Source: Escherichia coli (GTDB lineage: Bacteria > Pseudomonadota > Gammaproteobacteria > Enterobacterales > Enterobacteriaceae). From it: a stretch of 64,000 bases of DNA. Positions 1,374 through 4,715 of the stretch are shown here, one piece after another; within the stretch, counting starts at the first letter, position 1, and each line of letters opens with the position of its first letter. The stretch lies in assembly GCF_030013205.1 (NCBI RefSeq), contig NZ_CP122648.1; one strand, given 5' to 3'. Below the pieces are notes generated by a model that was given only the letters and a program-made list of their open reading frames with translations, did no database searches and was not told the origin of the DNA. The translations under genes and the position numbers were made by a program.

Positions 1374-1884
1374 AGTGTATTCCTTATTGTTGCTTAGTTA
1401 GGGTAGTCACTATATTTGCGACTGAGCTGGTCGCTATTTTTAACCAGGCTGGAAAATTGAGTCAATATATCGAAAGCGGTAGTCGGCGGGTGTAAGTATG
1501 TAATGATGATGCTGCACTGGTGTTGAATATTATTCACGCCAAATTTTCCTTATTGAGCAACGTCGTCGCAAGTGGCCTCAATGATTTTAGACCATTATCA
1601 GAGGTCCGGGGCGGCAGGGAGAGATTTAGTGCTGTGGAATATTGTGGTGCTGATGAATATTTATATCCCGGATTGGTAGAGAAAAAGCTTTTTCCATGCA
1701 CTTTTTTTGCAAATATTTCTGTATGGGAGGCGGTTTTGTTGCAGATTAATTCATAAAGAAATGCATTTGGGTGTTGGCTGGAAGAGTCGCGGGTAGATGT
1801 TATTGTGCCAGCAGGGGCAGGGTAAGGTACTGTATCGATATGCTTTGGCAATTGCATGTGCCGCAGAGGGAGATGAAATGCCAA

Positions 1885-1922
1885 TAAAAAAGCCTGAGTT
1901 CGATGAGGGACGAACTCAGGCT
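1885..1922 (-). terminator. Intrinsic terminator downstream of yedS
   Basis: 12-bp perfect stem (agcctgagttcg/cgaactcaggct) with 8-nt loop; on the minus strand it is followed by TTTTTATTGG, about 45 nt past the yedS stop. Confidence 0.55.
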
Positions 1923-1964: not shown

Positions 1965-3158
1965 TTAGAACTGGTAGACTAAGCCCACAGCAACGATATC
2001 ATCGGTAGCGATGCCGTTTGCTTTGTAGAAGTCGTCGTCGTTGTCCAGCAGGTTGATTTTGTAATCAACGTAGGTGGACATGTTTTTGTTGAAGTAGTAA
2101 GTCGCACCAATATCAACGTATTTAACCAGATCTTTATTGGTGTAACGTGGGTCGCCGTTGCCGTCATGAGCCCAACCACCTAAATCCTTACCTTTAGATT
2201 GCAGGTAAGCGATGGACGGGCGCAGGCCGAAGTCGAACTGATACTGAGCAACAACTTCAAAGTTTTGGGTTTTGTTCGCAATACCACCTCTGTCAATGTC
2301 GTTATTGTCTTTTCCGCTGCCATATGCAGTCATATTACGTGTTTCTGCATACATTGCCGCTAAATAGACATTATTCGCATCATATTTAGCACCGACTGTC
2401 CATGCTTCAGCTGTTTCACCACCAGCATATTTATTCGAGCGTTGCTCACCTAAACCAGTAGCACGTTGGTTATCAGTACGGTCAGAGTTTGAATATGCAG
2501 CCCCGAGGCTTAACCCGAAGTCAAAGTCATAGGAAGTGGACATACCGAAACCGTCACCATTTTCTTTAGACAGTTTACGATTATTACCATTACCAGAACC
2601 TTCTTGATCCCAAAGCCCACCCGATCCTTCATTATTACCCTGATATTGCAGAGCAAAGTTCAGGCCATCGACCTGACCAAAGAAGCCATTGTTACGGTAG
2701 GTTGCAACACCATTAGCACGACCGTTCAGGAAGTTGTCGGCACCAGCATAGGTATCGCCACCAAATTCTGGCAGCATATCGGTCCATGCTTCGATGTCAT
2801 ATACGACACCGTAGTTACGACCATAGTCGAAAGTACCATTCTGACCAAAGCCTAAACCTGCAAATGCCAGACGCGTTGCGGTATTACCTTTGTCGCTTTC
2901 AGGACCGTTTGCGCCAATGTTAAATTCCCACTGACCATAACCAGTGAATTGGTCAGCGATCTGAGTTTCACCTTTGAAACCGATACGGGCATATGACATG
3001 TCGCCATCGCTGCCAGCATCATCAGAGAAGTAGTGCAGGCCCGCTACTTTTCCGTACAAATCCAGTTTATTACCATCTTTATTATAGACTTCAGCCGCAT
3101 TTGCTGCGCCAGCAACTAATAACGCCGGGACCAGCATTGCCAGAACTTTTCTTTTCAT
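1965..3158 (-). CDS. yedS: OmpC/OmpF-family outer-membrane porin, intact reading frame
   Basis: ORF 1965..3188; start set at [21 protein letters not shown] signal peptide; porin-like GxxYxF-rich beta-barrel sequence ending ...VGLVYQF. Confidence 0.85.
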
Positions 3159-3470
3159 TATGTATTCCCTTGTGATTATAATCTTCATGAATATATCAAT
3201 AAGTGCCGTTATCCAAAAAAAAGCACATTTGGATACTATTCTATGAAGTTCATTTTATTTTAAAGATTACATGCAACAAATATATTTAAAAGATTTCAAA
3301 ATGTTTCTAATCTATTTAATATAATTCGGAATTATGAATTCTAAATATAAATATTCATGAAAATTATAAATGTATATCAATATGTTATGAGTTGAGCGGA
3401 AACATAGGGGGTATCAATGATTGTTGCGCCAAACGGCTGGTGTGATCACGCGCACATTAATGAAGGCATA

Positions 3471-3558
3471 AAAAAAGCCGGCATCATGCCGGCCCAAAAA
3501 AATAAACAAGACGATAAAAGGCTAATAACGGAAGCATCATGACACAGAATAATAAAAA
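3471..3558 (-). ncRNA. rseX: Candidate small RNA (RseX-like) between yedR and yedS
   Basis: Minus-strand TACAAT -10 near 3565-3570 and a 7-bp GC hairpin (gccggca/tgccggc) followed by T7 at ~3470-3476 give a ~90-nt transcript; RseX maps between yedR and yedS in K-12 (recalled, sequence not verified). Confidence 0.4.
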
Positions 3559-3842
3559 GGTATAATTGTAATCAGTGCTAATATATTGATTGAATGAATT
3601 AATAAAGCCGATATCAAAGATAAATAAAATCGCTCAAAACGATTTTTCCTGTATTCACTGCCGTTGCGCAAAAATTATCTATTTGTTCAAAAAATGATTG
3701 AGTCTTGACTGGCTCATCCAATGTGGAAAAATGTGACTTTTATCACATAATAGTACTAAGTCTGAATTTTCCGGGTTATCTCAAAATGGAATACGGTTCG
3801 ACAAAGATGGAAGAGAGACTCTCTCGCAGCCCTGGCGGCTAA

Positions 3843-4100: not shown

Positions 4101-4715
4101 TTGCGACTCTTTGGCAACGGAGCGCGTATGGACTTACAACACTGGCAGGCACAGTTCGAAAACTGGTTGAAAAACCATCATCAGCACCAGGACGCGGCCC
4201 ATGACGTGTGTCATTTTCGCCGCGTCTGGGCTACGGCACAGAAGCTGGCGGCAGAAGAGACGCGTCGCCTGCTGCGTGAAGAATTCGTGCAATTTCCGGC
4301 GGAGAAAATCGAGGCCGTTTGTCATGCCATTGCCGCTCACAGTTTCAGCGCGCAAATCGCCCCCTTAACAACGGAAGCTAAAATCGTCCAGGATGCGGAT
4401 CGGCTGGAAGCCCTGGGGGCGATTGGCCTGGCGCGCGTGTTTGCTGTTTCAGGGGCATTGGGCGTGGCGCTGTTTGATGGTGAAGATCCGTTCGCACAGC
4501 ATCGCCCGCTGGATGATAAACGCTACGCGCTGGATCATTTCCAGACTAAGTTGCTGAAGCTACCGCAAACCATGCAAACCGCAAGAGGCAAGCAGCTGGC
4601 GCAGCACAACGCGCAATTTTTAGTCGAGTTTATGGCGAAGCTCAGTGCCGAACTGGCGGGGGAGAATGAAGGTGTCGATCACAAGGTGATAGATGCGTTT
4701 TCACCCGCGGGCTGA
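4101..4715 (+). CDS. yedJ: HD-domain phosphohydrolase YedJ
   Basis: 204-aa ORF with an H..HD-type motif region ([19 protein letters not shown]); immediately upstream of dcm; start may be the second Met at 4128. Confidence 0.8.

Follow-up and report, generated by a model that had tools for sequence, protein, structure and literature searches.

An intact yedS (ompS1) allele in Escherichia coli of porcine ETEC type, predicted to encode a general-diffusion porin that is probably silent by default

OmpN of E. coli and OmpK37 of Klebsiella, both minor porins of low expression, are the nearest characterised paralogues of YedS. The ompN gene lies at a different locus, where it also adjoins an sRNA gene, micC, and its product has 377 aa against the 397 aa of YedS, in which loops L4-L7 are longer. 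OmpC has the fold and the constriction residues in common with YedS, as well as a near-identical signal peptide, but it is encoded at a different locus and YedS has about 30 more residues in the external loops. The Salmonella porin OmpS1 is quiescent and is controlled antagonistically by H-NS and LeuO (PMC4264507). It has been equated with the E. coli gene as "yedS (ompS1)" (PMC2731931), and the name also appears in the database entry "outer membrane protein S1 [E. coli KTE142]". OmpS1 and YedS, equated by the naming of others, are both long OmpC-like porins with an AT-rich upstream region and low expression. In K-12 strain MG1655, yedS (b4496, formerly b1964-b1966) is annotated as a pseudogene. 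Two lesions interrupt it, in agreement with the original prediction: a CAG to TAG change at nt 484-486, which places an amber codon at position 162, and, near nt 666, the loss of 1 bp.

The gene described here lies in a 64,000-nucleotide stretch of E. coli DNA, referred to below as the window. It is very probably an intact yedS (ompS1) allele that specifies a general-diffusion porin, probably silent by default, in a porcine ETEC/O139:H1 background. Both the yedS gene and the identical protein are present in public databases, and the intact state outside K-12 is already known.

The window gene and its product

The gene order in the window, hprS-hchA-porin-rseX-drpB(yedR)-yedJ-dcm-vsr, is that of MG1655, and the porin gene has the same orientation; its syntenic position in MG1655 is that of yedS. 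The locus does not have the context typical of ompC (the micF-rcsD side), and no micF lies nearby. The features of the locus are listed in Table 1.

Table 1. Features of the yedS locus in window coordinates
Feature	Position	Strand	Basis or detail
yedS intrinsic terminator	1881..1922	minus	GC-rich stem, T-run; terminator scan
yedS stop codon TAA	1965-1967	minus	
yedS CDS, 397-aa OmpC/OmpF-family porin precursor	1965..3158	minus	ORF, family scores, RefSeq match
Allele-specific central block, surface loops L4-L6	2279..2629	minus	aa ~177-293; ~70% identical to K-12
Signal peptide codons, 21 aa	3096..3158	minus	predicted cleavage before AEVYNK; alignment to solved porin chains
yedS 5' UTR and promoter region, presumed H-NS target	3159..3469	minus	22-34% GC
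Shine-Dalgarno-like AAGGGA	3166..3171	minus	8-13 nt upstream of ATG 3158; read from sequence
ACATTTTGAAA, candidate OmpR site	3294..3304	minus	exact 11-mer in common with the TTTACATTTTGAAACATCTA element upstream of K-12 ompC
CRP-consensus-like palindrome TGTGATCACGCGCACA	3441..3456		between rseX and yedS; read from sequence
rseX, Hfq-binding sRNA gene	3470..3558	minus	Rfam RF01401, 93.4 bits (gathering score 50), full length

The claim that a complete 397-aa OmpC/OmpF-like porin is encoded here was borne out by an uninterrupted reading frame, with no internal stop or frameshift across the 397 codons, and by family scores well within the porins (below). The protein is 100% identical to RefSeq WP_000824405.1. 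The minus-strand open reading frame at 1965..3188 runs to 407 aa from an in-frame upstream ATG at 3188, which would add 10 residues and from which some older 405-aa database entries start, and to 397 aa from the ATG at 3158. The start was placed at 3158 because the AAGGGA motif, the same in the upstream regions of K-12 and APEC O1, lies 8-13 nt before it and the annotated RefSeq and K-12 starts agree with it. The protein begins MKRKVLAML and ends VYQF with a terminal Phe. Both the signal peptide and the C-terminal aromatic residue had been foreseen. The leader has the hydrophobic core and the cleavage site of the K-12 OmpC leader, and cleavage is predicted between ANA and AE because solved porin structures, in their mature form, align with YedS from residue 22 onwards; the C-terminal VYQF is the usual outer-membrane assembly signal. 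The predicted terminator was likewise found. Its hairpin (minus strand, 1922..1891) begins 43 nt past the stop codon and consists of a 12-bp stem with 7 GC pairs and an 8-nt loop, followed by TTTTT.

Downstream, the hchA-yedS intergenic region contains a 116-aa open reading frame (1534-1884, minus strand) for which some RefSeq genomes list a hypothetical protein (WP_072264948.1, WP_107235853.1) and which has no annotation in K-12. The GC skew of this region is unusually high, up to 0.46, and the open reading frame may be a spurious call.

YedS matches the Pfam family PF00267 (Porin_1) with 476.9 bits over residues 27-397, against a gathering score of 23.7, and the NCBIfam OmpC subfamily model NF007841, which is a subfamily model and not an equivalog, with 546.8 bits against a cut-off of 484. 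The solved structures that it matches best by sequence are OmpK37 (6v78, 493 bits) and OmpK36 (~450 bits), followed by E. coli OmpC (416 bits), PhoE (393 bits) and OmpF (387 bits). Comparison with the K-12 paralogues gave identities of 71.1% to OmpN, 66.5% to OmpC and 61.9% to OmpF.

An AlphaFold (AF2) model built from a 24-sequence alignment (pLDDT 70, pTM 0.71) has 16 strands, in line with the antiparallel beta-barrel of general porins, and its low-confidence segments are the external loops. With Foldseek, the model matched OmpK37, OmpC, OmpK36 and OmpF at TM-scores of 0.74-0.79 normalised to query length and 0.85-0.90 to target length. The values for 6v78 (OmpK37) and 2j1n (OmpC) were 0.78-0.79 and 0.88-0.89, respectively; those for 6v78 by itself were 0.79 and 0.88. 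All six of the OmpF eyelet residues are kept: K16, R42, R82, D113, E117 and R132 correspond to K37, R58, R96, D127, E131 and R147 of YedS. The L3 constriction loop contains PEFGGD, and the acidic D127/E131 face the basic K37/R58/R96/R147. No sequence feature of a working general-diffusion porin is missing from YedS, and on sequence and model the window yedS is predicted to encode a classical enterobacterial porin of this kind.

The upstream region and rseX

The prediction of about 650 bp of AT-rich DNA upstream of the gene was close: the interval to drpB (3159-3842) measures 684 bp, and its GC content is 22-37% in 200-bp windows over 3101-3800. The interval is not promoter alone, however, as it contains rseX, which lies directly upstream of yedS in the same orientation and has its own terminator at 3495-3475 according to the terminator scan. 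MG1655 has rseX annotated at the matching place. The yedS-rseX neighbour pair parallels ompC-micF and ompN-micC. Among the best 23 loci of the species scan described below, rseX was seen only in Escherichia (E. coli, E. albertii and E. whittamii), and the Citrobacter yedS orthologues among those 23 loci have no adjoining rseX.

With rseX and its terminator upstream, the yedS promoter must fall within the 311 bp between the two genes. This segment is conserved at 86-100% in all allele classes of the locus. It holds a weak sigma-70-like match (9/12) at 3345-3318. The promoter scan returned 9 sites against 7.2±2.5 in shuffled sequence, that is, no excess, and because the scan did no better than shuffled sequence no yedS promoter is claimed. 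The candidate OmpR site is identical over 11 nt to part of the ompC upstream region of K-12 that we take to be OmpR box C1. By a rough estimate the chance that two AT-rich 300-bp regions have an 11-mer in common is ~0.2, so that the site is kept as a lead only. The K-12 counterpart of the CRP-like palindrome, TGTGAtcaggcGCACA (coordinate 2033766), gave an in vitro footprint that was assigned to yedS (PMC12871828). Wild-type K-12 does not express rseX "and surrounding areas", which are derepressed in hns/stpA mutants (PMC8313858). On sigma-E induction the "yedS (ompS1)" mRNA went down 2.5-fold, along with those of ompC, ompF, ompN and phoE (PMC2731931).

Pairing of sRNAs with the yedS mRNA was examined by RNAduplex, a crude method, in which seed regions were run against positions -80 to +40 of yedS and compared with 300 dinucleotide shuffles. 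Seed regions were used because MicF, MicC and RseX at full length formed long duplexes of no meaning with targets of 210 nt. The positive controls were clear, with MicF-ompF at -27.1 kcal/mol (z=-4.9) and MicC-ompC at z=-4.6. YedS is said by Warner et al. 2013 to be controlled through MicF/MarA. MicF nt 1-33 against positions -80 to +40 of yedS gave -10.2 kcal/mol (z=+0.76), and none of the MicF, MicC and RseX seed regions paired with this segment above chance; a site may lie elsewhere. For yedS, direct control by MicF or RseX was set aside, the duplex test having come out at chance.

Alleles and lesions of yedS in E. coli

The alignment with K-12 revealed neither a stop or frameshift overlooked in the window gene nor an intact and identical gene in K-12. 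Both K-12 lesions are absent from the window gene, and so is the frameshift of O157:H7, which was also looked for. K-12-derived strains are 90.6% identical to the window over the whole gene, and this identity is unevenly spread. The upstream region, rseX, the 5' UTR and the signal peptide are 96-100% identical, and within the gene the 530 nt at the 5' end and the 315 nt at the 3' end are ~99% identical, whereas the 350 nt in between, which encode loops L4-L6, reach only ~70%; repair of the K-12 gene alone would therefore not give the window allele.

Over 25 kb the window matches several porcine ETEC/O139:H1 genomes at 100% identity, and in these the gene is labelled "ompC: porin OmpC" (WP_000824405.1). 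The source of the window is a wild E. coli of porcine ETEC type, not K-12. The original prediction had arrived at a non-K-12 lineage from the intact state of the gene; the lineage stands on the 25-kb match, but an intact yedS-type gene is too common to tell much about the lineage.

The yedJ gene (4128-4715), for an HD-domain phosphohydrolase, has a 108-bp in-frame deletion (junction 4244/4245) between two 11-bp direct repeats (CTGGCGGCAGA). RefSeq still annotates an intact 195-aa "phosphohydrolase", and the enzyme is probably inactive because 36 aa, including the YFHD motif, are removed. The deletion is common to some porcine ETEC genomes (ETEC4079, K_EC180) and absent both from close relatives with a match of 25,108 bp and from CFSAN018748. 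Between fliE and yedL (24442-25864), the identical ETEC4079 record shows a fragment of an integrase together with a DUF5503 pseudogene that carries a frameshift, and the two look like the remnant of a small mobile element.

A megablast search with the window gene found full-length matches (>=80%) in 1,661 of 5,426 complete E. coli genomes, 60 of which carry a full-length yedS that is >=99% identical. When the whole hchA-drpB interval was searched, a porin gene was found in nearly every E. coli genome, in distinct classes. For example, APEC O1, APEC_AN-25 and CFT073 have intact porins of 371, 357 and 352 aa (positions 886-2001, 887-1960 and 886-1944 of the respective locus sequences) that are 59.7-60.2% identical to the window protein. 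None of these three reaches any NCBIfam porin cut-off, and the other-class porins carry LVEWGGD or FVEWGGD in L3 where the window YedS has LPEFGGD. The other classes and the window have essentially the same upstream region, 5' UTR and signal peptide. The breakpoints are sharp: identity across classes drops from 93-100% to ~30-70% just past the signal peptide (~3065) and is back to 93-98% at the stop codon. In an evenly spaced sample of 60 records of the locus, ~35% were of the YedS type, 28% of the APEC-O1/AN-25 type and 20% of the CFT073 type, and 13-15% were IS-disrupted or deleted. About half of E. coli genomes carry one of the porins that are ~60% identical to YedS. At least four porin types occur at the locus, ~60% identical to each other and as distant as OmpC is from OmpF.

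Alleles of the YedS type combine alternative blocks in L2, L4, L5, L6 and L7 in mosaic fashion, and synonymous divergence between E. coli yedS alleles reaches a dS of 0.3-0.55. The central block of the window allele, which falls on low-confidence loop segments of the AF2 model, is >=99% identical in 100 of the 5,426 genomes, and not one genome lies in the 90-99% band. The window allele is a discrete L4-L6 loop variant present in ~2% of complete E. coli genomes. A pig-specific variant was ruled out, the same block being found in human, dog and bird isolates besides pigs.

Loss of the gene is recurrent. The exact context of the K-12 amber codon occurs in 357 genomes, and that of the O157:H7-type 1-bp deletion (at the GDGFGMS codons; Z1813 locus 884-2070) in 298. 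With the amber and frameshift genomes counted off, at most ~1,000 genomes (~18%) have an intact YedS-type gene, an upper bound that takes these two lesions and no others into account. One pig isolate has IS30/IS600 insertions at the locus, and in a chicken-meat isolate an IS1-mediated deletion took out yedS, rseX and drpB and truncated yedJ and hchA. The K-12, O157:H7 and IS-disrupted lineages lost yedS independently of one another, and the gene is therefore dispensable in many niches. In the O157:H7 strain Z1813, drpB next to yedS is also annotated as frameshifted.

One possible but tentative reading of these patterns is that yedS is a cassette-like hypervariable locus, in which a conserved and silenced promoter, 5' UTR and signal peptide would be joined to a different mature porin in each lineage. 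No description of such a locus was found in the papers examined that mention yedS. The cassette-like hypervariability is the only aspect with some potential novelty, and it is a property of the species rather than of the window.

Orthologues, competing explanations and consequences

The species scan covered one genome per species, and neighbourhoods were compared among the matches listed. Among these, intact relatives in the dcm-yedJ-(drpB)-porin context are E. coli E69, E. albertii and E. whittamii at 85-86% identity, and at least a dozen Citrobacter species and Superficieibacter at 77-83%. The next-best of the matches listed (68% or less) are mostly at other loci; the one in Enterobacteriaceae bacterium RIT691 retains the dcm-yedJ-drpB context. 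A syntenic Salmonella yedS locus was not found among the 80 loci listed, the sole Salmonella match there being a non-syntenic 66% paralogue in subsp. diarizonae. OmpC-family porins 66-68% identical to YedS also appear on contigs of a "Collinsella sp." MAG and of "Chryseobacterium sp. 18061", most likely through contamination or mis-binning in the public records.

Compared with its intact syntenic orthologues (E. albertii, E. whittamii, Citrobacter spp. and Superficieibacter), YedS has a dN/dS of 0.03-0.08 in the barrel core, and the ratio rises to 0.15-0.52 in loops L2 and L4-L7. These ratios indicate that YedS has been maintained by selection, with its exposed loops evolving fast.

The core ratios bear directly on the view, which we consider unlikely, that yedS is intact only for want of time to decay, being a cryptic gene never usefully expressed in E. 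coli and of no effect on permeability. Recurrent independent inactivation in K-12, O157:H7 and the IS-disrupted or deleted lineages would fit such a gene, as would an AT-rich upstream region of the type bound by H-NS and the silence of rseX and its surroundings in wild-type K-12 (PMC8313858). The barrel core, however, is under strong purifying selection, which speaks against a cryptic gene that is simply decaying, and intact syntenic orthologues persist across Escherichia, Citrobacter and Superficieibacter. The surface loops, moreover, diversify in discrete blocks, which implies a protein exposed to phage or immune selection, and an effect of YedS on carbapenem susceptibility in a clinical isolate has been reported, as cited in PMC11267920 and PMC4048246.

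That the gene is a second copy or a recent duplicate of ompC is highly improbable, even though its NF007841 score lies above the cut-off and PGAP names the yedS-locus gene ompC in every genome examined. The name follows from the gene passing the OmpC subfamily model, which is not an equivalog, and genomes with two ompC-labelled genes are a trap for automated porin-loss screens. At 66.5% identity to K-12 OmpC, the protein is nearer to OmpN (71.1%) and OmpK37, its position is that of yedS, ~277 kb from ompC in K-12, and 77-86% identical orthologues lie in the same dcm-yedJ-porin context in other genera. A porin acquired horizontally or borne by a prophage (Lc/NmpC-like) and inserted beside hchA is scarcely credible. 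The low GC content of the flanking DNA and the very high dS of 0.3-0.55 between E. coli alleles could be read in this way, and a possible Salmonella origin of the rseX-yedS region has been mentioned (PMC8313858), but the yedS flanks within the window contain no phage or mobility genes, the chromosomal position is the same in three Escherichia species and many Citrobacter species, and the flanks agree at 93-100% identity across all E. coli allele classes.

An intact yedS allele with a functional product is thus the reading preferred here, and the gene is most likely held off by H-NS under laboratory conditions. Its default state would be transcriptional silence imposed by H-NS/StpA on the extremely AT-rich upstream region. 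Expression would need counter-silencing, by LeuO/OmpR as for Salmonella ompS1, or particular host conditions. If made, YedS would presumably form trimers that pass small hydrophilic solutes, including beta-lactams and carbapenems.

An effect of yedS on antibiotic permeability, raised in the original prediction with carbapenems as the example, is plausible in view of published work on another strain. Reportedly, the YedS of a clinical E. coli was linked to carbapenem susceptibility by Warner et al. 2013 (Antimicrob Agents Chemother 57:1935). As cited in PMC11267920 and PMC4048246, the clinical YedS is likewise an intact yedS-locus porin of a non-K-12 strain and is said to influence carbapenem susceptibility. 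The window allele differs in its surface loops.

The strain keeps a spare general porin. If de-repressed, this porin could alter how readily the outer membrane lets beta-lactams and carbapenems through, and it could be another receptor for phages or colicins, or an antigen. Because RefSeq labels the gene "ompC", genome-based searches for loss of ompC among carbapenem-resistant E. coli can take one gene for the other. The pattern at the locus, with its deep allele classes, loop mosaics and repeated loss, may make a population-genetic study worthwhile. If the cassette-like organization is true, it would suggest that phages, colicins or host immunity have long exerted balancing selection on a porin that is thought to be silent.
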